From assembly GCA_041650715.1 (NCBI GenBank), contig JBAZKQ010000001.1:723913-787912 (forward strand): a stretch of DNA of 64,000 nucleotides. The letters run 5' to 3'. Of the stretch, positions 4,969-62,092 are shown one piece after another. How positions within the stretch are numbered: the stretch's first letter is position 1; every line of letters begins with the position of its first letter. The DNA comes from Patescibacteria group bacterium (GTDB lineage: Bacteria > Patescibacteriota > Patescibacteriia > Patescibacteriales > UBA12465). Below the pieces are notes generated by a model that ran no database searches, was not told the DNA's origin, and worked only from the letters and a program-made list of their open reading frames with translations. The translations under genes and the position numbers were made by a program.

Positions 4969-5997
4969 ATGAAAAAACTAATTTTTATCATCAGTTTCAT
5001 AACTATATTTTTTATTTTTTCCGCTCCCGCTTGGGCGGCGTGCTCTTGGGAAACGGAAATTACCACTACGACCTATACCGCTCTCGGCTCAGCCCCGGTT
5101 ACGTCTGTTTCGGGAGGCTGCATCGCTAAAAGCATGCTTAAGGATAGTGATACTAAATGTTCCGGGACTAAGCCGACTTTTAGCATCAACTCCGGAAAAT
5201 CGGCCGTTTGTTGCTGTGATGGCGATCTTGGAAGCACGGATAAAATGCCGTTATTTAATATTCCTGATTTACAAGTAAAAATTCCGGGTATGCAAAATTT
5301 TAGCCAAACCACTTGTATCCCCGGAGCCAGTGGCGGTTATTTTTGCCAAATACCATGGATTGGACAATATATAATCGGTATTTATAATTATGCCATTAGC
5401 ATTGTCGGTATTTTAGCGGCGATTATGCTTATGGCCGGCGGCTTACTTTGGTTGCTTTCGTCGGGAGATGCTTCAAAAATTAGCCAAGCCAAAGAATTAA
5501 TTATCGGCAGTGTAACCGGCCTAATTATCTTGGCGGCCTCCTACATAATTCTCGGTCAAATTAATCCCAATCTCGTAAATTTTTCGCCAACCGCGATTAA
5601 TACGGTGGCCGATGTCGAACCGCTTTCCAGCGACGGCAATATAAATAACAGCACCGAATGCAATAATTGCGTTTCGCTGCAAAGCGCGATACCTTATAAA
5701 AATGGCCACCTCATAAATAGTGATTTGAATGCTAAATTGGCAACCGCTTGGGCAAACTCGGGTAGCCTGAAGTGGAGGGTAACCGAGGCTTATCCGCCCT
5801 CAAGCATGCACAACAGCCTTTGCCATAATAACGGCATGTGCGTCGATATCGCTTTGACGACCGATAAGAGTTGCACTAATGTAAATAAATTAATCTCAAT
5901 TTTAAAAAACGCCGGCGTATCAGTTTTAAATGAATACACCGGCTGCGGCGGGACCCAGACGACTTATGCCACGGGCGGGCATTTACATGTCAGATAA
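4969..5997 (+). CDS. secreted pilin-like membrane protein with LAS/peptidase-M15-like zinc hydrolase C-domain
   Basis: Signal peptide (SAPAWA|A). The pilin core is a close match to ORF 3591 at both protein and DNA level. The C-domain has H-x6-D (CHNNGMCVD) and a terminal HxH (GGHLHV), the LAS metallopeptidase signature. Confidence 0.65.
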   Translation: MKKLIFIISFITIFFIFSAPAWAACSWETEITTTTYTALGSAPVTSVSGGCIAKSMLKDSDTKCSGTKPTFSINSGKSAVCCCDGDLGSTDKMPLFNIPDLQVKIPGMQNFSQTTCIPGASGGYFCQIPWIGQYIIGIYNYAISIVGILAAIMLMAGGLLWLLSSGDASKISQAKELIIGSVTGLIILAASYIILGQINPNLVNFSPTAINTVADVEPLSSDGNINNSTECNNCVSLQSAIPYKNGHLINSDLNAKLATAWANSGSLKWRVTEAYPPSSMHNSLCHNNGMCVDIALTTDKSCTNVNKLISILKNAGVSVLNEYTGCGGTQTTYATGGHLHVR

Positions 5998-29992: not shown

Positions 29993-32900
29993 CTATTTGA
30001 TTAACCCAGCGCGACGCAAGGCTTCAGCCATAGCGTCATTCGAAGTTCCGACTTTATCTTGCCAATTTTCTTGGCGCAACTGTTTCGGTTCTTCGTACGA
30101 AGTGTCATTTCCGAAATGATATTCCGATACATAGTATTTGACATCATTCGGATCGGCGCCACAAAAAAAATCTGAAGTTTCGCCAATAGACGACCAAACG
30201 TCGCTTAAATTGCGGCTAACTCGGGCGCGCCCGCAGGAAATTTCATGAGCATCAATTTTACGGGTCGGCAATTTAGACACATTATCCATAAATTGAAGCG
30301 CACGGTCAACGTCGTTTGCGAAAGCATTAAGCAAGTAAGCCGGAATATTATTGGCCCTTACTAAAGCGTCACGGTCGGCTTGGCGTGTTTTTAGAAGATC
30401 AACGAGTCCGGCGATAAAATTATTGGCCTCGTTAATCTTTACTTTAGCTTCCAAAAAATTAGCTTCATTACTCAGGCTACGTGCTTCGGAAACTAAATAA
30501 CGGAAACGGCTCGATTCTTCAGAAATTAATTCTAAGGATTGATTAGAAAAATGATTGCTAAAGTTATTTTCTGCTTCTTCAATCAATTCTCCCACTTCGC
30601 TGTTTTCCGAAAGCAAATTTGCCTTCAGCGTACGTAAGCCCTGTCTGCTTTCGCTTAGGAGCTCAGAAAAATTTTCCGCGTTTGCCCGTTCGACAACCTG
30701 AGAAATAATTCTTGTACTTTCAGTTTGGAATCTTTCAGTCATGGCAGTCCAGCCCCAGCTATACCAGGGTCTATCGGATTCCAAGAAAAATTCACCGCTC
30801 AGTAGCGCCCGCATCATACTTATTATCGCGGAGCGATTAGCAAGCTTTGCATCTTTAGAATCCTTATGAATGGCGAGGCGGAAACTATTACCACTCAGTG
30901 AGATATACGGAAAAGCATAAACTTTTTCTCCGTTATCTTTCTGGGCATATTCTAACGGCTGAAGCTCTTTCAGCAAAGCAACAAAACTTTCTCCGCTCTC
31001 TAACCAAGGAGCATTCCTCAGCTCGCTTTCCTTAATCCGCCACGCTTCTTCGAGGCGTCTATTTTCAAAATAAACGTTTACCTCGTCAAAGCTATCAAAA
31101 CTTGTATAAGAATCGACATACAGTCTCAGCTGACGACCACCGGCAAGACTTAAGGTGCCAATTTGGTTCTTAGCCTGCTCGGCATTGATACGAATTGCAG
31201 CCTGATTATTGTTATAGTTAACAGAAATTTCTTCACCATTAACTAAAATAGAGTCAGGATTATCAGCCAGCACTTTTGCTTCGAGCTCGGCGTCGATATT
31301 AGTAAGAAGAAAATCTTCTACCTTTATCTCAGCCAAACACTTTGCCGAAACAAGTTTCAATGAAACAAACTCTTGCCACTCCGATCGTTCGAACGGATAA
31401 ACAAAAATTTTCTCACCGGCACGACGATTTAATTCTTTGGCCCGCTTTATTATTTCGTTATCAGCGGCGGCGAATTCATAATTGTCTATGCTGTAACCAT
31501 AAGACAATTTATTCACCAGCCAATTACCAAAAATTTTAGCGGCCTCAGGATGATCCGGCGTTTCCAGAACTTCTTCTTTAACAAGCATGTCATTAAAGAA
31601 TGTCTGACGCGTCGAAACACAAACGTCTTTTTCCGAGTCAAATTTAGGACTTACTCCTTCTTCGACTTTAGCCAGTTGCGGAGCAACCTCGACTAACCAT
31701 GAAGTGTCCACGTTTGTGGCCATTGTGACAAGACGAAATATTCCGCGTCGGGTCGCGAGATCGAAGGGTTGTCCGACAATCCAATTTTTTCCGTTAACAA
31801 TGGATTCATTGGAAAGCCGACGAGAATAACCGTCGCCGTTTCTGTAATCCGACCATGAGCCCTGATATAAGTGCTCAACCATGCCGGCACAAAGTGCTTT
31901 TAGGATATCCTCCCTCTTTCCAGAACTCTGAAAAGAAGAAATTTTTCCTTTGAGCGCATTTGCCAGAAGCTGACGGCGATCACGTGCCTGATGATAGGCT
32001 TTCACGAAGACACCTTTTAAACGGCGTTCTTCGTTAGACATATTCCTGGCACCGCGGAAAACCGCGAGTTGCGCCATCGGGTCCGAATCTTCTTCCTTCG
32101 GACAGAAAGCCGGACGCCAAAGATCGACTGCATCCATTACATCGTCGCCGATTGTAACTTTACGAGCAGTTACTCCACCTTGTTCAAGAATAGCGGCGAT
32201 ATCAATAATATCGTCGACTACCCCGTACTTTTCCGCAGCGATAACCATGCGGCCATACTGAACAGAAATAGGCAGGCGAGAAACCTGACGCCCGATTGCA
32301 GTTACCAAACCGCTTTCGTCCATGCAACCAAGAGCTCTGAGAGCTTGCTTAGCCTCATGAATTTGATCTTGAGGCGGCTGATGGAAAAAATTTAATTCTT
32401 CGGCATCAATCTTAGCTTCGGCCAAACGTAAGACGGTTTGGTCGAGACGAACGCGTAGAATTTCGGCTTCCGGGAAGGCTAAACGATTTTCGTCGTCCGT
32501 TGGACAACAATCGATATAGACTCCCTCGCGGCAACGACCGGCCCGGCCTTTGCGTTGGGCGCGATCAGCTAGTGAAATCGCTTTCAGGAATAATCCTTCG
32601 ACGCCTTCATTAAGCTCGATACGACGCTCAGTCCCACCATCAACAACGGCATCAATATCCTCAATCGTAATCGAGGTCTGAGCGACGTTAGTGGCAATGA
32701 CACACTTGGGGCGACTATAGGAACGGAATACCCGATCCTGTTCGTCAGCTTCAAGTTCACCGTGCAGCGGCAGGATTTCGGCGTTGAGGCCATAGCTTTC
32801 CAGCTGGCTCCATAATTCACCGATTTCTTTTTTTCCCGGCTGAAAGGCTAAAACATTGCGACCCTCTTTAAGAAGACTGCTAATGTCCTGGCCCATGTTT

Positions 32901-33457
32901 CCGGAACTAACTTGCTCCTCAACCGGGTAACAACGACCGGGAATACTAATCACCGGTGCGTTGTTGAAATAAAGCGATAATTTTTCCGCTTCAAGTGTAG
33001 CGGACATAATTACCAATTTAAATTCGACGCCGCTTTCGATTTGGCGTTTCGACCAAGCAACGAGAACCTCCATATTGAGATTCCATTCGTGGACTTCGTC
33101 GAGCACCAGAATCTGGTGACGATGAGTGCCCATTAACTCTCTCACGAGAGCGAGGCCGTCCGTTACGAATAAGCAGCGCGTATTCGGTCCGTCCTGTTTT
33201 TCATAAGCAGTCCGGAATCCGATTTCGCTACCAAGTTCGCAATTACGTTCTTGGGCAACACGTTTCGCTACCGAGCGAGCGGCGAGACGACGCGGTTGAG
33301 TTACAACGAGAGAATATCCCTCGTCGAGCAAAAATTGCGGCACGCGGGTTGATTTCCCGGCGCCAGTTTCAGCGGTGATGATAACAACTGAATTGTTAAT
33401 CACTGAATTAATAATCTGGGCCCGGTAAGAATCCACGGGCAATTTCTGGTTTTTCAT
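29993..33457 (-). CDS. DEAH-box (HrpA/HrpB-like) ATP-dependent helicase with ~500-aa extra C-terminal region
   Basis: 1154 aa. TGAGKST Walker A, DEVHE motif II, SAT, QRKGRAGR motif VI, then an HA2/OB-like region to about aa 600. I could not assign the rest. Confidence 0.8.
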   Translation of the reverse strand: MKNQKLPVDSYRAQIINSVINNSVVIITAETGAGKSTRVPQFLLDEGYSLVVTQPRRLAARSVAKRVAQERNCELGSEIGFRTAYEKQDGPNTRCLFVTDGLALVRELMGTHRHQILVLDEVHEWNLNMEVLVAWSKRQIESGVEFKLVIMSATLEAEKLSLYFNNAPVISIPGRCYPVEEQVSSGNMGQDISSLLKEGRNVLAFQPGKKEIGELWSQLESYGLNAEILPLHGELEADEQDRVFRSYSRPKCVIATNVAQTSITIEDIDAVVDGGTERRIELNEGVEGLFLKAISLADRAQRKGRAGRCREGVYIDCCPTDDENRLAFPEAEILRVRLDQTVLRLAEAKIDAEELNFFHQPPQDQIHEAKQALRALGCMDESGLVTAIGRQVSRLPISVQYGRMVIAAEKYGVVDDIIDIAAILEQGGVTARKVTIGDDVMDAVDLWRPAFCPKEEDSDPMAQLAVFRGARNMSNEERRLKGVFVKAYHQARDRRQLLANALKGKISSFQSSGKREDILKALCAGMVEHLYQGSWSDYRNGDGYSRRLSNESIVNGKNWIVGQPFDLATRRGIFRLVTMATNVDTSWLVEVAPQLAKVEEGVSPKFDSEKDVCVSTRQTFFNDMLVKEEVLETPDHPEAAKIFGNWLVNKLSYGYSIDNYEFAAADNEIIKRAKELNRRAGEKIFVYPFERSEWQEFVSLKLVSAKCLAEIKVEDFLLTNIDAELEAKVLADNPDSILVNGEEISVNYNNNQAAIRINAEQAKNQIGTLSLAGGRQLRLYVDSYTSFDSFDEVNVYFENRRLEEAWRIKESELRNAPWLESGESFVALLKELQPLEYAQKDNGEKVYAFPYISLSGNSFRLAIHKDSKDAKLANRSAIISMMRALLSGEFFLESDRPWYSWGWTAMTERFQTESTRIISQVVERANAENFSELLSESRQGLRTLKANLLSENSEVGELIEEAENNFSNHFSNQSLELISEESSRFRYLVSEARSLSNEANFLEAKVKINEANNFIAGLVDLLKTRQADRDALVRANNIPAYLLNAFANDVDRALQFMDNVSKLPTRKIDAHEISCGRARVSRNLSDVWSSIGETSDFFCGADPNDVKYYVSEYHFGNDTSYEEPKQLRQENWQDKVGTSNDAMAEALRRAGLIK

Positions 33458-33567
33458 TTTTATAAGTTTTGGTTTTGAGGATGGTCAAACAAATTTAGCC
33501 AGCCTAAAAACCAAAACTAAAGGATAAATAATAACCTTATTACTATTAAGTTTTAAACGTACACTTT

Positions 33568-33658
33568 TTTCTCTTCTGAAAGCACCATTGGTAAATTTCA
33601 CTAATGATGATTTCGGGAAAGAAGCGAACAGTTTGAAAGTCTGTTCGCTCTTGAACTT
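33568..33658 (-). ncRNA. conserved intergenic element, copy B
   Basis: Paralog of 29899-29985. Lies between the DHH-motif gene stop (33727) and the helicase leader. Confidence 0.55.
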
Positions 33659-33726
33659 TTTTCTCATCCGATTTCGCTCTTAGAGATTAAAGCGCTCAAT
33701 TTAATGTCGAGAGATGACGAAAGGAT

Positions 33727-34575
33727 TTATGCCTGGGGTTTGTCGTAAGCCCCGGCAAAACCACGGCCAGCATCACCATAGGCCTGATAAAGACCGTTAG
33801 CAGCTGCCCAGCCGTTGGGATAAGTTGGCCGGCCTTCGGCCATTACGGCCTCACCGAGAAATTCGGCGACAACCGGTTTGGTACCGGACAGGTTCACCTT
33901 GTCCGGGAAACGTTTGTCTCCCTTTGCGAGATAAGGTGTGGCTGTCATGACTCCGGCCTCTACCAAAAATGGTATCGGACCCGAGTCGCGAACATCTGCT
34001 ACCTGGACACCGCCGAGCGTGACAGTTTTGGTCGGATTTTTCAGCTGCTGAACAGCGGCTTCGATTCCGGCCATAGCTTCGGCCTCCGAAGAAACGTTTT
34101 CACGTTTCATAATTTCGGGAAGACGCATGGCGAGAACTTCTTCAGCCGTAACACCAGGACACTGTCCCTGGTAGGCGGCGCCAAGACAGTGGTCTGCGGC
34201 AGCTATCACCCGGTCCTCCTGAGTTGGCTCAACTTCGAGATATTTCAGGAGTTGCCCCAATGAGGAAGCCTCGAGATACTGGCTTGGCGGTAAGCCGAAG
34301 CCAAAATTTCCTGGGTTATGATGGTCGCATTGCCCAACCATGACCAGCGAGCCGGCGGCTTTCGGAGAGCATTCAAAAATAATGCATTCCAAAGCCTCGG
34401 CGGCAGATTCGGTTGAATCCAGAACGAAGCCGTCGGCACGGTAGGCTGTCATTGGGTTGCACTTTTCGCCTGCAATTGTTGCCGTGGCTAAAAGTAAACC
34501 GTGCTGAGCGGCAATTTTGCGTGCTCTCTGCTCCTCGATGTCGGGAGCGCCGAAAATAATCACAATTTTATTCAT
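33727..34575 (-). CDS. DHH-motif protein (putative phosphoesterase), paralog 1
   Basis: 282 aa from MNKIVIIFGAPD. Contains QCDHHNPGN and AAADHC. It aligns by eye with ORF 34862..35632 (KIVIIFGAPD/KIFFIVPAND; CDHH/IDHH; SSLGQLLKYLEVE/SSIEQVAALLGVE; IAAADH/IAANDK). The track's upstream 17 codons fall inside the conserved leader hairpin, so I trimmed them. Confidence 0.6.
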   Translation of the reverse strand: MNKIVIIFGAPDIEEQRARKIAAQHGLLLATATIAGEKCNPMTAYRADGFVLDSTESAAEALECIIFECSPKAAGSLVMVGQCDHHNPGNFGFGLPPSQYLEASSLGQLLKYLEVEPTQEDRVIAAADHCLGAAYQGQCPGVTAEEVLAMRLPEIMKRENVSSEAEAMAGIEAAVQQLKNPTKTVTLGGVQVADVRDSGPIPFLVEAGVMTATPYLAKGDKRFPDKVNLSGTKPVVAEFLGEAVMAEGRPTYPNGWAAANGLYQAYGDAGRGFAGAYDKPQA

Positions 34576-34601
34576 TTTTTTCTTTTTTTCTCCGCGCACC
34601 A

Positions 34602-34656
34602 TTGCTCGGATTATTCTGTAACTCATAAATTATGAAATCCAAAATAATCCGGACAA
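34602..34656 (-). promoter_or_regulatory. conserved 5'-leader long hairpin, copy 1
   Basis: Arms 34602-34615 and 34643-34656 (minus strand UUGUCCGGAUUAUU / AAUAAUCCGAGCAA) enclose a 27-nt loop containing CAUAAUUUAUG. About 100 nt of leader is near-identical to 36580-36690. Confidence 0.6.
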
Positions 34657-34723
34657 TATGCTCCTTAAAAATGAAACAAATTTTTAGGTCTTTCTATTTC
34701 TATATTTTTCTATCAAAGAACAT

Positions 34724-34776
34724 TTCCATTTCGTCGTTTCCGACTCATCAGCACTGATACACATCAGTGGATGGAA
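34724..34776 (-). ncRNA. type III hammerhead ribozyme (HHR-1)
   Basis: Minus strand: UUCCAUC|CACUGAU-GUGU-AUCAGUG-CUGAUGA-GUCG-GAAA-CGAC-GAAA-UGGAA. All core invariants are present (C3-A9, G12-A14, A15.1:U16.1, C17, G10.1:C11.1). Stems I, II and III are 7, 4 and 6 bp. Confidence 0.9.
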
Positions 34777-34861
34777 GAGCAAGTTTAAACGGCTTGCTCT
34801 TTTGAACTTTTTTTTGCTGGCCAACGCCAATTACTCCGCAAAAGAGAGTATGATTTTGAAA

Positions 34862-35632
34862 TTATTTTTGCCAGAAAAATTCCAAAATCTTGACCTGGGT
34901 TTCTGGAGTGGGTTTTTCCACTCCCGAGAATCCATTCTTCGGATCACCACCGGCCCAGCGAGCGAATGTCGTTCCATCCTCAGTGAGAGCATAAAACTGC
35001 ATGTGCCGTGGACCGAAATAAATCCATTTTCCATTGAGGCCGTCAACGGTCAGAAGTTCAGCGTACTGACCAAAAATGCGGTCGGTAATTGCCGAAGTGG
35101 AGCCCTTTGGGCAACGGACAAACCATTTTTCGCCCCGGATTTCAGCCGACCGGATATCAGCTACTGCTTGGGCCTCTTGATCAGGAGTGACGCCCTGCGA
35201 CAAGCGGTCTTGGGCACGAACAATTTTAATTTCGTTTTCAGTTGCGCCCATCGCCCTTAATGCCGGAATGTATCCTTTATCATTGGCGGCGATAAGGAGT
35301 TGATGGTGAGTAAGTTCTACTCCCAAAAGAGCGGCCACCTGCTCGATTGAGGATTTTTCGTTGAAACGATTTTCATCACGGTAAATGTGATGATCAATAT
35401 TAATTGCGTTCCAACGAGCGAGCCCGCCCAGTTCAACCCCGTAAATCACGGCCGAAGGATTAGCGGATAAAACTCCCTCAACTTTTTCAACCACGGTTTG
35501 TTCTAACCTGGCCCAGGTTGCTCCCCAGGCTTGACGGGTAACTACGTGACTGATTTTAGCGGCCTGAAGAATTTTACGGATTTCTACCGCTTCGCCATCA
35601 TTAGCTGGCACTATGAAAAAAATTTTTTCCAT
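34862..35632 (-). CDS. DHH-motif protein (putative phosphoesterase), paralog 2
   Basis: 256 aa. Contains NIDHH and AANDKGY. Start is coupled to the upstream stop (UAAUG). Confidence 0.6.
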   Translation of the reverse strand: MEKIFFIVPANDGEAVEIRKILQAAKISHVVTRQAWGATWARLEQTVVEKVEGVLSANPSAVIYGVELGGLARWNAINIDHHIYRDENRFNEKSSIEQVAALLGVELTHHQLLIAANDKGYIPALRAMGATENEIKIVRAQDRLSQGVTPDQEAQAVADIRSAEIRGEKWFVRCPKGSTSAITDRIFGQYAELLTVDGLNGKWIYFGPRHMQFYALTEDGTTFARWAGGDPKNGFSGVEKPTPETQVKILEFFWQK

Positions 35633-36063
35633 TACACAAAGTTTAATTGGCCACCAAGCTCATAAGCAACGGCGTCCTGGTTGGTTAAAACTTTTATCTC
35701 TTCGGCGAGCGAAGCTAAGTTCTTCCGAACTTTACTGGCTATGCCTATACCCCAGAGAATCCAAATATATTCAATTTGAACCACTCCGTTTTCGGATAGT
35801 ACCCACATACCGCTAGCCGGGGTTTCATTGCTGAACCCCAAACTCTTAGCATGTTCACGTAGCTTCTGGACGTGCTCGGTTGCCACCGGCTCACCAGTTT
35901 TTTGTAGAGTTGGGATATATAGGGCATCCCGTCCCCCTTTAAATTCTTCTCCGAGTTCCGAAAGTTCTTCAGTGGAATATGTCCACCAACCGATTTCCGG
36001 TTCAAGAGTACACCCACCAGCTCTAAGAGCCGCCTCAAGAGGCGACTTTGCTAAATATTTCAT
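35632..36063 (-). CDS. hypothetical protein (143 aa)
   Basis: The ORF starts 24 nt after HHR-2 and its stop overlaps the next start. No motif recognised. Confidence 0.55.
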   Translation of the reverse strand: MKYLAKSPLEAALRAGGCTLEPEIGWWTYSTEELSELGEEFKGGRDALYIPTLQKTGEPVATEHVQKLREHAKSLGFSNETPASGMWVLSENGVVQIEYIWILWGIGIASKVRKNLASLAEEIKVLTNQDAVAYELGGQLNFV

Positions 36064-36087
36064 CTACCGCGTTGTTTTAATGAACAT

Positions 36088-36140
36088 TTCCGTTTCGTCG
36101 TTTCCGACTCATCAGCACCGACATACATCGGTTGACGGAA
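36088..36140 (-). ncRNA. type III hammerhead ribozyme (HHR-2)
   Basis: Minus strand: UUCCGUC|AACCGAU-GUAU-GUCGGUG-CUGAUGA-GUCG-GAAA-CGAC-GAAA-CGGAA. Core and stem II are identical to HHR-1. Stems I and III carry compensatory changes. Confidence 0.9.
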
Positions 36141-36180
36141 GAGCAAGTTTGAACGACTTGCTCTTTTTTGAACGCCCTTG

Positions 36181-36579
36181 CTATTTAGCCTTGGGCCGAA
36201 AATCCAAGTACTCGAACTCCACTTCCAAAAAAGTGAGTTGAGTTGTTGACTGGCCCAATTTTTTCGCGGTCCTTTTCAGAACCTTGAGAGTCGCGGCTTT
36301 GTAGGCCGCTAATTCGGTGTATTCCGGATTACATTCGCCAGTGATGGCGACTGTAATTTCACCTCCGACAGGGCAGCCCCAGTCTTTGTGATAAACCGTG
36401 CGCGCCGACGTAATCACGGCTCCAACATAGGTGCCGTATTTTTTCATAACTGCGGCCGCTGATTGCTGCCATGCTTTTGCAGCGATTTCCACTGCATTGT
36501 CGGCAGTAATCACTGCATTGTCGTGGCCATAGCCTGCAACAACTCCCAGGCTGGCAAAAAATTTACTGGTTTTTTTCAT
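36181..36579 (-). CDS. hypothetical protein (132 aa)
   Basis: ORF preceded by the conserved leader hairpin and an A-rich tract. No motif recognised. Confidence 0.55.
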   Translation of the reverse strand: MKKTSKFFASLGVVAGYGHDNAVITADNAVEIAAKAWQQSAAAVMKKYGTYVGAVITSARTVYHKDWGCPVGGEITVAITGECNPEYTELAAYKAATLKVLKRTAKKLGQSTTQLTFLEVEFEYLDFRPKAK

Positions 36580-36606
36580 TTTTTTCTTTTTTCGTCCGCG
36601 ACACCA

Positions 36607-36661
36607 TTGTCCGGATTATTCTGTAGTCCATAAATTATGAAATTCAAAATAATCCGGACAA
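36607..36661 (-). promoter_or_regulatory. conserved 5'-leader long hairpin, copy 2
   Basis: Perfect 14-bp arms at 36607-36620 and 36648-36661 (UUGUCCGGAUUAUU / AAUAAUCCGGACAA). Confidence 0.6.
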
Positions 36662-36719
36662 TATGATCCACAAAAAATGAAAAATCTTTTTCGACTATTC
36701 AATTTCAAAGAACTTTTTT

Positions 36720-37668
36720 TCCTCTACCTAATCTAATTAATCTATTCTGAGGAAGTTCCCGAGTCCCAAGCTTGTTCAAGGCTTAATGGCTCGGCCGATC
36801 TCCTCATAAGAGACGGTCACGATTGTCGCTTTTCTCCGAGCCTTTTCTCCTTTCGGAAATACGGCCACAAGATACTTGGATCGCCTGCGCCCTTGATTAT
36901 AGTTTGCGACATAATCTCGGGATCAGCTCGACTAACCGTTTATTCTTTCCGGTCCGTAGGCCACGAAAGAAGCAAACGAATGAGCGCTTGCTGGTCTTAG
37001 GAAATGAACTCTCTCCCTGACTCGCAATTTTTGCGAGCAGATGTTAATTCATCTTAATCTCCTAAAATCGACACTAATCGCTCGATAATTTTTTTATTAT
37101 TTATGTACGATAGATTATTCCTTAATCTAATTAGGAGAACGGTTTAACCGCCGTTCTTTCGGCTCTCCGCTAAGCGGATAGTGATGAAGGGGAGAAACGA
37201 ATACATTATTTTGTGGCGCGCATGGGGCTGCACCGCTCTCTCTCCTCTCCATTACTATTCACTCAACAAAAAACTCTCTATTATGGAGAGAGCAAAGTTC
37301 CTATATATGCGGGCGCGCCTTAGCTTAATCAAGCCTCTGCGCTCACGTATATATCTTGGTTTTAAATAATGGCTCTCTCCTTCCATTACTTTTCTATTTG
37401 TAAATGTTCGTCTCGACTTCTCGCCCGGCTCTTGGCCTGGGCATTAGCGGAGACTGGGTCTCTCTTATCTTATTGATAAGGGATGGCCACTCGCCGTTAA
37501 GGCTTTCCCTGTTCTTACCCTTCGGATTGGACTACCACCATGCTCTCTCCTTCATAATGGTCGTCACTCTAACCCAGCTAAGTATAGAATCGGGGAGTGA
37601 TATCTCTTTATTAATGAATGTACTGGGATGTGTCCGAATGTCTCTTTGCCTTTTCTCACTTTCGATAC
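36720..37668 (-). ncRNA. candidate large structured non-coding RNA or long leader (no ORF of 60 aa or more on this strand)
   Basis: Lies downstream of the minus-strand promoter at 37701-37673. Dense local hairpins. Three GGAGAGAG-containing repeats (plus coordinates 37538-37560, 37367-37390, 37233-37256) and a complementary GCUCUCUCC (37285-37293). Class unknown. Confidence 0.45.
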
Positions 37669-37672
37669 TAAC

Positions 37673-37701
37673 AGTTTAGCATAGATATTTAATCTTGTCA
37701 A
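37673..37701 (-). promoter_or_regulatory. sigma70-like promoter facing the GC-rich block
   Basis: Minus strand TTGACA (37701-37696), 17-nt spacer, TAAACT (37678-37673). Confidence 0.55.
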
Positions 37702-37797
37702 TACTAAATCTTACATTTTATTGCTATTGTTAGCAAAACAGCGGACAGTATTGAGTAAAATAGGCATATTTATTTACTAAAAGTGTCATTATTTGAG

Positions 37798-37826
37798 TTG
37801 ACACCTATATTTAAATTTGCTATAAT
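37798..37826 (+). promoter_or_regulatory. consensus sigma70 promoter of the TrmB-like gene
   Basis: TTGACA (37798-37803), 17 nt, TATAAT (37821-37826). The -10 is embedded in palindromes GCTATAATATAGC and TATAGCTATA. Confidence 0.7.
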
Positions 37827-37911
37827 ATAGCTATAAACTACTATTTCGCTTGACGCCTAATAAGCGCAAACGAAATAAAAATCATTATTTGTAAAGTTAT
37901 CCCCAACCCAT

Positions 37912-38700
37912 ATGAACGAAAAAATCTTAATTAGTCTCGGTTTAAGCGGTGTACAAGCAGAGGTTTTTAGTTGCCTGCTCCAAAACGGACCGCAAAAAGC
38001 CAGTGATATCGCCAAATTAACCAAGCGCCCCCGCGGTGTCGCCTACAAAGGCTTAGAGGAATTGATTAGCTTGGGTCTGGCCAATAAAAAAGAAGCAAAG
38101 GCCGGTATAGCTGTCTTCGCGGCTGAGCACCCCTCGAATCTCGAGAAGGTCATAGAACAAAAAGAAAAAGACCTGGCTAAAACCAAGTCTGCTTTTGCGA
38201 GCTCCCTGCCCGATCTGATATCGACTTTCAATCTTGTCAGCAATAAGCCAGGAGTTAGATTTTATGAGGGGGAGGAAGGAATTAAAAAATCCCTGGAAGA
38301 TACCTTAAATTGCCAAGACATAATTTATACTTTTGCTGACATCGAGGCCGTTGAAAAAAACGTCAAAGAAATTAATGACGCTTACGCTAAAAAGAGGGAG
38401 AAGGCACAAATTAAAAAAAGAGTTATCGTCGCCGATACTCCTTTTAATCGCTCTTATTTAAAAAATTATAATGGCACTATTACCGAGTTTCGTTTTCTCC
38501 CCAAAGATTTTTACAGTTTTAACAGCGGCGTGCAAATTTATGAAAATAAAGTTTCTTATCAAGTAATTTCGGCGGAGAATAAGATGGCTATTATTATTGA
38601 AGACAAAAATATATACCAAATGAATAAGCTTTTATTTGAGTTTATCTGGGAAAAATTGGCAACTAAAATTAATGATTCTTCTCAAACGCCAAATACCTAA
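37912..38700 (+). CDS. TrmB-family HTH transcriptional regulator (paralog 1)
   Basis: 262 aa. N-terminal wHTH (LGLSGVQAEVFSCLLQNGPQKASDIAKLTKRPRGVAYKGLEELISLGL). The shared block PGVRFYEGEEGIKKSLEDTL matches ORF 52657..53430. Confidence 0.75.
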   Translation: MNEKILISLGLSGVQAEVFSCLLQNGPQKASDIAKLTKRPRGVAYKGLEELISLGLANKKEAKAGIAVFAAEHPSNLEKVIEQKEKDLAKTKSAFASSLPDLISTFNLVSNKPGVRFYEGEEGIKKSLEDTLNCQDIIYTFADIEAVEKNVKEINDAYAKKREKAQIKKRVIVADTPFNRSYLKNYNGTITEFRFLPKDFYSFNSGVQIYENKVSYQVISAENKMAIIIEDKNIYQMNKLLFEFIWEKLATKINDSSQTPNT

Positions 38701-61582: not shown

Positions 61583-61656
61583 GGGCAATTAGCTCAGTTG
61601 GTTAGAGCGCAACACTGATAATGTTGAGGTCGGAGGTTCGAATCCTCCATTGCCCA
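61583..61656 (+). tRNA. tRNA-Ile(GAU)
   Basis: GGGCAAT/ATTGCCC acceptor stem, anticodon loop CTGATAA, T-loop GGTTCGAATCC. Confidence 0.9.
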
Positions 61657-61680: not shown

Positions 61681-61753
61681 AGCGGGATAGAGCAGTTGGC
61701 AGCTCGCTAGGCCCATAACCTAGAGGTCGTCGGTTCGAGTCCGACTCCCGCAA
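61681..61753 (+). tRNA. tRNA-Met(CAU), initiator-type
   Basis: Anticodon loop CCCATAA. An A1/A72 mismatch at the top of the acceptor stem and A73. The body is close to what I recall of E. coli tRNA-fMet (GAGCAG..GCTCG...AGGTCGTCGGTTCGA.TCCG.C.CCCGCAAC). Confidence 0.8.
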
Positions 61754-61777: not shown

Positions 61778-62092
61778 GCCTCGGTAGCTCAGTGGTAGAG
61801 CAAAGGACTGGTTTTCGGTCCGCTCAATGGAAACATTGAGATGAAAATCGGGTGAATTCGGGGAAGCCTTAATTTAGAAATAAAAAAGGTAATCCCGAGC
61901 CAAGCTTTAATTGGGTAAATAATTAAAGAAGGTGTAGAGACTAGCGGGTGAGCCCAACAATAACCCCGCCGCGAGCGCCCGACTCCGTCCTTAAAAATTA
62001 AGCGGAGATGATATAGTCCGATCCTTAAGGAAACTTAAGTTGTAGCAAGGAAAATCCTTGTGTCGTCAGTTCGATTCTGACCCGGGGCACCA
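61778..62092 (+). tRNA. tRNA-Phe(GAA) interrupted by a group I intron; CCA encoded
   Basis: Exons 61778-61809 and 62050-62092 join to GCCUCGGUAGCUCAGUGGUAGAGCAAAGGACU|GAAAAUCCUUGUGUCGUCAGUUCGAUUCUGACCCGGGGCACCA. This makes a normal cloverleaf with anticodon GAA. Confidence 0.85.
61810..62049 (+). ncRNA. group I intron (IC3-like) in the tRNA-Phe anticodon loop
   Basis: P1 pairs exon GGACU with the intron guide GGUCC (61817-61821), with a U.G wobble at the 5' splice site. The intron ends in G. Core strings AAUUCGGGGAAGCCUUAA, AAUCCCGAGCCAAGCU and GAAGGUGUAGAGACUAG match tRNA-borne IC3 introns (Azoarcus tRNA-Ile, cyanobacterial tRNA-Leu) as I recall them. Confidence 0.85.

Follow-up and report, generated by a model that had tools for sequence, protein, structure and literature searches.

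What is a 53-nt element doing in the spacer between two genes of a bacterial operon, if its sequence reads as a self-cleaving ribozyme? The question is raised by a 64,000-nt stretch of the Patescibacteria contig JBAZKQ010000001.1 (positions 723,913 to 787,912), hereafter the window. Within this window, the segment 36088–36140 had been predicted from the letters alone to be a hammerhead ribozyme (HHR-2), a paralogue of a first one (HHR-1). All coordinates given here are positions in the window, and HHR-2, HHR-1 and the genes of the operon lie on the minus strand. Judged by its sequence, the 53-nt HHR-2 is a complete, genuine type III hammerhead. It is likely a cis-acting ribozyme similar to that of the satellite RNA of tobacco ringspot virus (sTRSV), which would punctuate the operon by self-cleavage of the polycistronic messenger RNA (mRNA).

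Read from 36140 to 36088, HHR-2 is UUCCG-U-C|AACCGAU-GUAU-GUCGGUG-CUGAUGA-GUCG-GAAA-CGAC-GAAA-CGGAA, exactly as the original prediction had it. The ribozymes and the parts of HHR-2 are as follows.

36088–36140, minus strand: HHR-2, type III hammerhead (sequence, exact core match, 71.6 bits with the class model R1, covariation)
36140–36136, minus strand: 5′ strand of stem III
36135, minus strand: U16.1
36134, minus strand: C17
36133–36134, minus strand: predicted scissile bond, 3′ of C17 (36134) and 5′ of A1.1 (36133), placed by hammerhead numbering on the sequence
36133–36127, minus strand: 5′ strand of stem I
36126–36123, minus strand: loop 1 (GUAU)
36122–36116, minus strand: 3′ strand of stem I
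36115–36109, minus strand: CUGAUGA
36108–36097, minus strand: stem II with its GAAA loop
36096–36093, minus strand: GAAA (G12 to A15.1)
36092–36088, minus strand: 3′ strand of stem III
34724–34776, minus strand: HHR-1, paralogous type III hammerhead (core match, R1 74.5 bits, Rfam 41.4 bits)
34770, minus strand: C17 of HHR-1, with predicted cleavage between 34770 and 34769

The nucleotides that define a hammerhead core are all present. C3-U4-G5-A6-N7-G8-A9 is found as CUGAUGA (36115–36109) and G12-A13-A14 as GAA (36096–36094), while A15.1 (36093) pairs with U16.1 (36135) and H17 is a non-G nucleotide (C17, 36134). The U16.1:A15.1 pair is invariant in 124 of 124 relatives. Loops close stem I (GUAU) and stem II (GAAA, with G10.1-C11.1 as the closing pair of the stem), and stem III is open and made by the 5′ and 3′ ends, which is the type III topology.

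Such a sequence is rare in the window. The 23-nt core with stem II, CTGATGAGTCGGAAACGACGAAA, is present exactly twice (36093–36115 and 34729–34751, both on the minus strand), with none expected from shuffled sequence; the identity of core and stem II in HHR-1 and HHR-2 that had been claimed is thus exact. A generic type III descriptor, which left stem II, N7 and the stems unrestricted, retrieved only HHR-1 and HHR-2 in 128 kb (both strands of the window) and nothing in 50 shuffles that served as control. With R1, HHR-2 scores 71.6 bits (E ~5e-19) and HHR-1 74.5 bits, and the next match in the window scores 10.4.

Of the 53 positions, 7 distinguish HHR-1 from HHR-2, and the pattern that had been described for these differences was recovered. 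From HHR-1 to HHR-2, two pairs changed on both sides: 16.2 A>G with 15.2 U>C turns A:U into G:C, and 1.4 U>C with 2.4 A>G turns U:A into C:G. One change preserves pairing (2.7 A>G, giving U.G at 1.7:2.7), one lies in loop 1 (G>A) and one breaks a pair (1.1 C>A, an A/G mismatch at 1.1:2.1). In simulation, two or more double-compensatory changes among seven random substitutions arise with P ~0.01. The comparison of the paralogues alone is only a moderately strong argument for selection on the fold.

A far larger body of evidence comes from relatives elsewhere. A scan of viral contigs with CTGATGAGNNNGAAANNNCGAAA gave 93 matches (HHR-1 and HHR-2 included), 47 of which fold into complete type III hammerheads that share one design: stem III of 3–8 bp, U16.1, H17 (mostly C), stem I of 6–7 bp with a nearly invariant U-GUGU-R loop, and stem II of 4 bp with GAAA. 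The covariance model R1 was trained on 29 distinct sequences of this class, namely 27 from viral contigs together with HHR-1 and HHR-2. As the latter two are inside the training set, independent support is given by the common design of the 27 other sequences and by the further copies, well over a hundred, that R1 retrieves elsewhere. Species-representative genomes were scanned with a pattern that fixed only loop 1, the core and loop 2 and constrained no stem position. At least 119 loci were found, and the full structure is formed in 131 of 134 cases among the matches listed.

In the 29 training sequences, 95.3% of the stem cells are paired, double changes occur at 14 of 17 pairs and the covariation is 0.845, against at most 0.11 when the stem partners are slid out of register. 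In an alignment of 124 distinct sequences, which was fitted to R1 and therefore favours the structure, the corresponding values are 95.9% paired and 14 of 17 pairs changed on both sides (740 double-change cells), with a covariation of 0.896 against at most 0.144 for the slid controls. Selection on the fold is a safe reading despite the model-fitted alignment because of the size of the effect and because the stems also formed where the scan left them unconstrained. Of the core, 11 nucleotides serve catalysis alone, and these vary hardly or not at all in hundreds of copies whose stems vary freely. The U.G at 1.7:2.7 recurs in 51 of 124 relatives; G.U pairs are strand-specific, which points to a structure of RNA rather than DNA. 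As judged from these sequences, the fold of the class is under selection.

The same holds at the locus itself. Among the comparison loci that were fetched (labelled with L-numbers, such as L001, L108 or L209), 14 metagenomic loci encoding a homologue of the 132-aa gene upstream of HHR-2 were collected. A hammerhead lies within about 100 nt past this gene in L209, L210, L213, L214, L216 and L217; in several loci it stands also, or instead, before the gene, and the presence of the module varies among relatives. In the seven positional orthologues, 95.8% of the cells are paired and the covariation is 0.599, whereas slid partners reach 0.15 at most. It had been argued that the fold was selected rather than a chance similarity, and alignment of homologous loci with a covariation score had been named as the way to check it; the fold is indeed kept by compensatory changes, and the orthologues and the class together bear out the argument decisively.

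L209 is fully syntenic with the window. It carries a divergent TrmB-like regulator, a stretch of ~1.2 kb poor in open reading frames (ORFs), the 132-aa gene, a hammerhead, homologues of the 143-aa and 256-aa genes, a second hammerhead and then a different gene. Two hammerheads thus bracket the 143/256-aa pair in both loci, and this arrangement is conserved. Gene content between conserved anchors varies among relatives. In the window the genes concerned are these.

36181–36579, minus strand: 132-aa gene upstream of HHR-2, homologue of SAM-AMP lyase (PII-like; PDB 9gad/9lqd, E ~1e-19, full length)
34862–36063, minus strand: gene pair bracketed by HHR-2 and HHR-1 (ORFs; stop and start overlap by 1 nt)
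35632–36063, minus strand: 143-aa protein with no assigned function
34862–35632, minus strand: 256-aa NrN-like DHH phosphodiesterase (PDB NrN 9lq9, E = 1.5e-19; PADLOC DHH_CorA, CorA-associated DHH, 1e-32)
33727–34575, minus strand: gene downstream of HHR-1 with a CDHHNPG motif, likely start ATG 34575 (282 aa)

Every gene from 29993 to 36579 is on the minus strand. HHR-2 sits within a 117-nt spacer between the 132-aa and the 143-aa gene, in which the scan flagged no sigma-70-like promoter or terminator. The last base of HHR-2 is 36088 and the ATG of the 143-aa gene occupies 36063–36061, which leaves the gap of 24 nt that had been noted.

The repeat extends past the ribozyme. HHR-1 and HHR-2 share a 96-nt module of 86% identity, made up of a hairpin, the hammerhead and AUGUUC(A/U)UU, while the flanks are otherwise unrelated. 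The additional elements are listed below.

36141–36163, minus strand: hairpin GAGCAAGU-CGUUCAA-ACUUGCUC abutting stem III of HHR-2 (AA/UU extension possible, 36139–36165)
36075–36087, minus strand: conserved motif AUGUUCAUUAAAA directly 3′ of stem III of HHR-2
34777–34799, minus strand: hairpin GAGCAAG-CCGUUUAAA-CUUGCUC abutting HHR-1
~34805–34850, minus strand: two small conserved hairpins upstream of the HHR-1 hairpin

The HHR-2 hairpin begins 16 nt past the stop codon of the 132-aa gene and forms in the fold of the 96-nt module (z = -3.1). It is followed (36163–36141, then UUCCGUCAAC) by no U-tract, and the scan flags no terminator on the minus strand at this place; when the plus strand is scanned, the hairpin of HHR-1 resembles a terminator. 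An abutting hairpin of 7 bp or more was found at stem III in 52 of 144 class modules, viral as well as bacterial, compared to 10 of 144 at shifted control positions. Likewise, 32 of 144 modules carry G[AT]TC[TA]TT no more than 25 nt downstream, compared to 3 of 144 control positions. Among orthologues the hairpin stem varies with compensation and the GUUCAA loop is kept. Other lineages have different hairpin sequences and loops, with an unchanged ribozyme.

A GUUCA-like pentamer was seen at three fixed places of the module: as RUGUUCA just 5′ of the hairpin, as the GUUCAA loop and as AUGUUCWUU just 3′ of stem III. These pentamers fall at 36141–36175, 36075–36087, 34777–34812 and 34713–34723 in the window, and also occur in L114, L209, L210, L213, L214, L216 and L217 (a Parcubacteria subgroup). 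The motif GUUCUUUGAAA is also present at 36704–36714, with no hammerhead upstream. Three explanations of the flanking motifs were discarded. A pseudoknot between the GUUCAA loop and the downstream GUUCUUUGAA would meet a C/A mismatch in four of seven orthologues (...CAUUAAAA) and displays no covariation. The downstream motif as a -35 element (TTGAAA/TTGATA) has no consistent -10 at 16–18 nt. A T-arm or tRNA-like mimic is contradicted by a loop register unlike that of a canonical T-arm and by ordinary tetraloops in other lineages.

The sequence of HHR-2, its fold, the selection on this fold, the conserved position relative to genes and the membership of a large class are established. From these, we infer catalysis, the resulting RNA ends and an effect on expression. 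A polycistronic RNA would be made, in which the 53 nt of HHR-2 would fold into three helices around the CUGAUGA/GAAA core. The ribozyme would then cut itself 3′ of C17 (36134|36133) by internal transesterification. Hammerhead cleavage yields an upstream product with a 2′,3′-cyclic phosphate and a downstream product with a 5′-OH (PMC6155905). The upstream mRNA with the 132-aa gene would thus end 7 nt past a stable hairpin and carry the 2′,3′-cyclic phosphate, and the downstream mRNA would begin with a 5′-OH, followed by the folded ribozyme and then, after 24 nt, by the start codon of the 143-aa gene. A second cut by HHR-1, 1364 nt downstream, would free the 143-aa/NrN-like pair as a bicistronic RNA of its own, so that neighboring cistrons would no longer be coupled in stability and translation.

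A role in shaping RNA ends is supported by the abutting hairpins, by the nearest upstream same-strand ORF, which ends a median of 76 nt before a class ribozyme, and by precedent clusters in other bacteria (PMC3088659). The strand of the neighboring genes was scored across loci with a crude ORF proxy, which is weakly informative: upstream neighbors are on the same strand in 64 cases and on the opposite strand in 32. ORFs of 120 aa or more contain 22 of 135 class ribozymes.

Several observations weigh against HHR-2 as an active operon punctuation mark. By the same crude proxy, the downstream neighbor of class ribozymes is co-oriented only about half the time (47 vs 41), so the class as a whole is not confined to spacers between co-transcribed genes. 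Rfam at its gathering thresholds reports no hammerhead in the window, nor in 10 hammerhead-rich loci with ~40 class members; for Hammerhead_3 (RF00008, gathering score 48.5), HHR-2 scores 24.5 bits in the wrong register and HHR-1 41.4 bits in the correct one. This miss reflects the seed of the model, not biology. In predictions of the secondary structure of minimum free energy, an alternative fold that hides part of the core is favored or tied. A further objection is the unpaired A1.1/G2.1. This position, at the base of stem I and beside the cleavage site, is a standard pair in 123 of 124 relatives, with HHR-2 as the sole exception. It is paired in HHR-1 and in the L209 orthologue (UUCCGUC|CAUCGAU..., C1.1:G2.1). 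In folding calculations, A1.1 costs ~2 kcal/mol compared to C1.1 and adds a competing A1.1:U4 pair (P ~0.39).

The mismatch leads to the rival explanation that survives best, although we consider it unlikely: HHR-2 would be a recently duplicated, decaying copy of the module, crippled by C1.1>A and of little role. In its favor, the mismatch is unique among the 124 relatives, is absent in the closest orthologue (L209) and strengthens an inactive alternative pairing with U4. Imperfect relatives also exist, with U4>C in L210, L209_b and L174 (before the 132-aa gene), and the presence of the module around the 132-aa gene varies among relatives. However, all else in HHR-2 is intact, and the two double-compensatory changes imply that purifying selection has acted since the module was duplicated. 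Six other loci keep the position after the 132-aa gene, and the full hammerhead fold is as populated as that of HHR-1 (0.195 vs 0.137 in folding). A single A.G at a helix end may also be tolerated, and A1.1 could be a strain or assembly variant. The 1.1:2.1 pair does not define the core, but its loss may lower the activity of HHR-2. Innermost helix mismatches were reportedly found by Werner and Uhlenbeck in 1995 to lower the chemical step considerably in some cases. HHR-2 may accordingly be slower than its relatives, a somewhat impaired copy.

The core substitution U4>C (CCGAUGA for CUGAUGA) was observed in otherwise intact members at L210 1661–1715, L209 4954–5008 and L174 272–326. These may be attenuated or inactive natural variants.

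A second rival holds that the hammerhead pair excises the ~1.36-kb segment between them, to be circularized or mobilized through ligation by the ribozyme or by an RtcB-type ligase, as a retrozyme- or viroid-like RNA or as a cassette. Two hammerheads on the same strand do bracket a discrete block of genes, here and in L209, 5′-OH and 2′,3′-cyclic phosphate ends are substrates for ligation, and gene content between anchors varies among relatives. The possibility was also raised by Perreault et al. for clustered bacterial hammerheads, although no spliced or circular products were detected by these authors (PMC3088659). The chimeric stem III that such a circle needs would pair the 5′ strand of HHR-1 with the 3′ strand of HHR-2, which leaves A opposite C at 16.2:15.2, so that the compensatory change makes each ribozyme self-specific; in L209 the chimeric stem III pairs poorly (CUCCC vs CGGAA). 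The pair thus reconstitutes no ligation hammerhead of the kind expected of a retrozyme or viroid-like RNA, which is moreover small and mostly non-coding, whereas the segment here is 1.36 kb and protein-coding. As no reverse transcriptase, integrase or transposase was recognized nearby either, we regard circularization as very improbable.

Equally hard to sustain is a mainly non-catalytic module, acting as terminator or attenuator, as a protein-binding site through the GUUCA-like pentamers or as a DNA recombination site for cassettes. It would account for the strong hairpin directly upstream, for the GUUCA-like motifs at three fixed places that catalysis leaves unexplained, for the terminator-like HHR-1 hairpin on the plus strand and for the variable gene content around modules. 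The coding strand, however, has no U-tract after the hairpin. The catalytic core is invariant while the stems vary, the G.U pairs are strand-specific, and it is the hairpins and loops that differ between lineages, with the ribozyme constant. Finally, chance resemblance to the hammerhead consensus, for which only the Rfam scores below the gathering threshold speak, is effectively refuted by the 50 empty shuffles, the E of ~5e-19 with the class model and the covariation in class and orthologues.

HHR-2 has a close structural precedent in the sTRSV hammerhead (RF00008), which reads GUC|ACCGGA-UGUGCUU-UCCGGU-CUGAUGA-GUCC-GUGA-GGAC-GAAAC (PMC9519601). Topology, core and GUC triplet are the same. 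Shared, too, are a stem I of 6 bp whose loop starts with UGUG and a stem II of 4 bp with a GNRA tetraloop; stem II is GUCC/GGAC in most class members and GUCG/CGAC in HHR-2. Loop 1 has 6 nt in the class (UGUGUR; UGUAUG in HHR-2) and 7 nt in sTRSV (UGUGCUU), and loop 2 is GAAA in the class but GUGA in sTRSV. In sTRSV, contacts between the loops give fast cleavage at physiological Mg2+ (PMC6155905). By analogy, the tertiary contact between loops 1 and 2 is probably kept in HHR-2. Further differences concern the setting. HHR-2 lies in a bacterial chromosome between protein genes, a hairpin abuts its stem III and its Rfam scores are below the gathering threshold, whereas sTRSV is a rolling-circle circular satellite RNA.

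The precedent for the genomic arrangement was described by Perreault et al. in 2011: clustered bacterial hammerheads that flank genes cleave in vitro and in vivo, and processing of long transcripts was proposed (PMC3088659). In prophage clusters such as that at ardA of Agrobacterium tumefaciens, several hammerheads on the same strand flank genes or short blocks of variable identity, much as they do here. One of these clusters flanks an anti-restriction gene, while HHR-2 and HHR-1 flank homologues of enzymes that degrade a CRISPR signal. The window locus differs in that no prophage hallmark or integrase is present and the neighbors are housekeeping genes (rpoB/C, ftsK, polA). The host is a member of the Patescibacteria, or candidate phyla radiation (CPR), the design is type III, sTRSV-like and coupled to a hairpin, and related CPR loci carry much denser arrays; type II is the form that is very common in bacteria according to the same authors (PMC3088659). 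An intrinsic terminator also has a stable hairpin soon after a stop codon, and the net result, an mRNA 3′ end protected by a hairpin, would be similar. In HHR-2, by contrast, the hairpin has no U-tract, and the 3′ end would arise from self-cleavage 7 nt later, with transcription presumably continuing.

Bacterial hammerheads flanking genes have been known since 2011, and HHR-2 alone is one more of these. What appears under-described is the association of the hairpin-coupled, sTRSV-like design with Patescibacteria, its dense arrays and its invisibility at Rfam thresholds. In the open-access literature, nothing relevant was found that links hammerheads to Patescibacteria, Saccharibacteria or CPR, which is no proof of novelty. 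The same sTRSV-like type III design is present in more than 100 Patescibacteria genomes. Names of Patescibacteria lineages are attached to 106 of 119 loci (89%) among the matches listed, a figure that is indicative and not a measured enrichment. Dense arrays on one strand occur in Patescibacteria metagenome-assembled genomes (MAGs), with 10 copies in 4.1 kb in L108, six in L094 and five in L133. Tentatively, and with considerably less confidence than in the role of HHR-2 itself, hairpin plus hammerhead could be envisaged as a lineage-wide, protein-independent means of mRNA punctuation in the reduced genomes of Patescibacteria. Such a 'ribozyme terminator/insulator' would provide hairpin-protected 3′ ends and ribozyme-capped 5′-OH ends, by the dozen in some clusters, and here would split a conserved ~1-kb structured RNA and several genes of CRISPR-signal-degrading enzymes into independently controlled transcripts.

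RiboJ is a synthetic insulator derived from sTRSV. If cleavage is confirmed, a natural equivalent of this synthetic 'ribozyme insulator' would exist in these bacteria, and the old problem of the function of bacterial hammerheads could be approached there in a tractable system. The homologues of SAM-AMP lyase and NrN, with no recognized CRISPR locus nearby, echo the ardA link, which suggests a tie between hammerheads and genes of defense or counter-defense.

The SAM-AMP lyase and NrN families both degrade SAM-AMP, a messenger of type III CRISPR systems (PMC12255297). In the 132-aa protein the WGCPxxGE region is kept, and PADLOC assigns it to Mvol_0529-fam (2.5e-25). No cas or CorA gene was recognized near the operon, by PADLOC or otherwise. 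The operon could serve stand-alone signal degradation, or counter-defense by an episymbiont.

The window itself is a Patescibacteria chromosome, not a phage. It contains the housekeeping genes rpoB, rpoC, lepA, murJ, recJ, ftsK, polA and glgA, and the closest relatives among the fetched loci are the Patescibacteria/Parcubacteria MAGs L174, L194/L168 and L114. A megablast of 12 kb against deposited phages gave no match, a search of PHROGs gave no meaningful match for the flanking genes, and no relatives of the 143-aa protein were found in the viral contigs.

Other features of the operon were noted in passing. The 132-aa and 282-aa genes have duplicate 5′ leaders of ~120 nt with 83–90% identity (36570–36690 and 34566–34685, minus strand). 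The start of the latter gene was placed at 34575 rather than at the called 34626 because its leader duplicates that of the 132-aa gene. The leaders hold a palindrome with 28-nt arms, ATTGTCCGGATTATT...AATAATCCGGACAAT (36606–36662), an embedded promoter-like TTGTCC-16-CATAAT, and then an A-rich tract and the ATG. The palindrome may be an operator/promoter or an RNA hairpin.

Upstream lies an ORF-poor stretch of ~1.1–1.3 kb (36700–37900, minus strand), between a divergent TrmB-like gene (37912–38700, plus strand) and the 132-aa gene. It is preceded by a strong promoter-like TTGACA-17-TAAACT (37701–37673, minus strand) and shares 74–82% nucleotide identity over up to 1352 nt with syntenic loci (L209 1766–3001; L210, L211, L213, L215, L218). 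RNAalifold on its core (36741–37094) predicts 94 pairs, 19 of which have compensatory changes, as well as invariant single-stranded blocks. No Rfam match was obtained for the stretch at E<=1. From this modeling, the stretch may encode a large structured non-coding RNA; some relatives have a hammerhead between it and the 132-aa gene.

Elsewhere in the window, a cluster of tRNA genes (tRNAs 61583–61656 and 61681–61753) contains a group I intron (61801–62040, plus strand; 93.3 bits in Rfam). The intron fits the group I introns recently described in tRNA genes of Patescibacteria (PMC13011429).

Outside the window, the arrays of class hammerheads span L108 2474–6529, L094 3338–6412, L133 5022–7304 and L204 1647–3537, with others in L171, L111 and L189. 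Some of their copies are 130–300 nt apart with no credible ORF between them; these short segments may be small RNAs or tiny ORFs. Homologues of the TrmB-like regulator lie within 8 kb of class hammerheads in ~18 of 119 loci among the matches listed (for example L091, L098, L107, L130, L170, L189 and L194), a raw count. Rfam matches near class hammerheads include a 65-nt segment similar to transfer-messenger RNA between two hammerheads (L133 6449–6513, minus strand, 65 bits), a DUF805b RNA ~260 nt upstream of the L114 hammerhead (5474–5508, minus strand) and a DUF3800-IX RNA (L204 4909–4977, plus strand). In the viral contig L001, Rfam also detects a type I hammerhead elsewhere in the contig (2233–2282, minus strand). 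A conserved, apparently structured segment, GGCGAAUCGAACACUCUCUAUUAUUGGAUCCCUUUAUCCAAUCCUAGCGAGGGC..., precedes the class hammerhead in the viral contigs L001 (8700–8760, minus strand), L002 and L003, and a ribosome-binding site and ATG come after.

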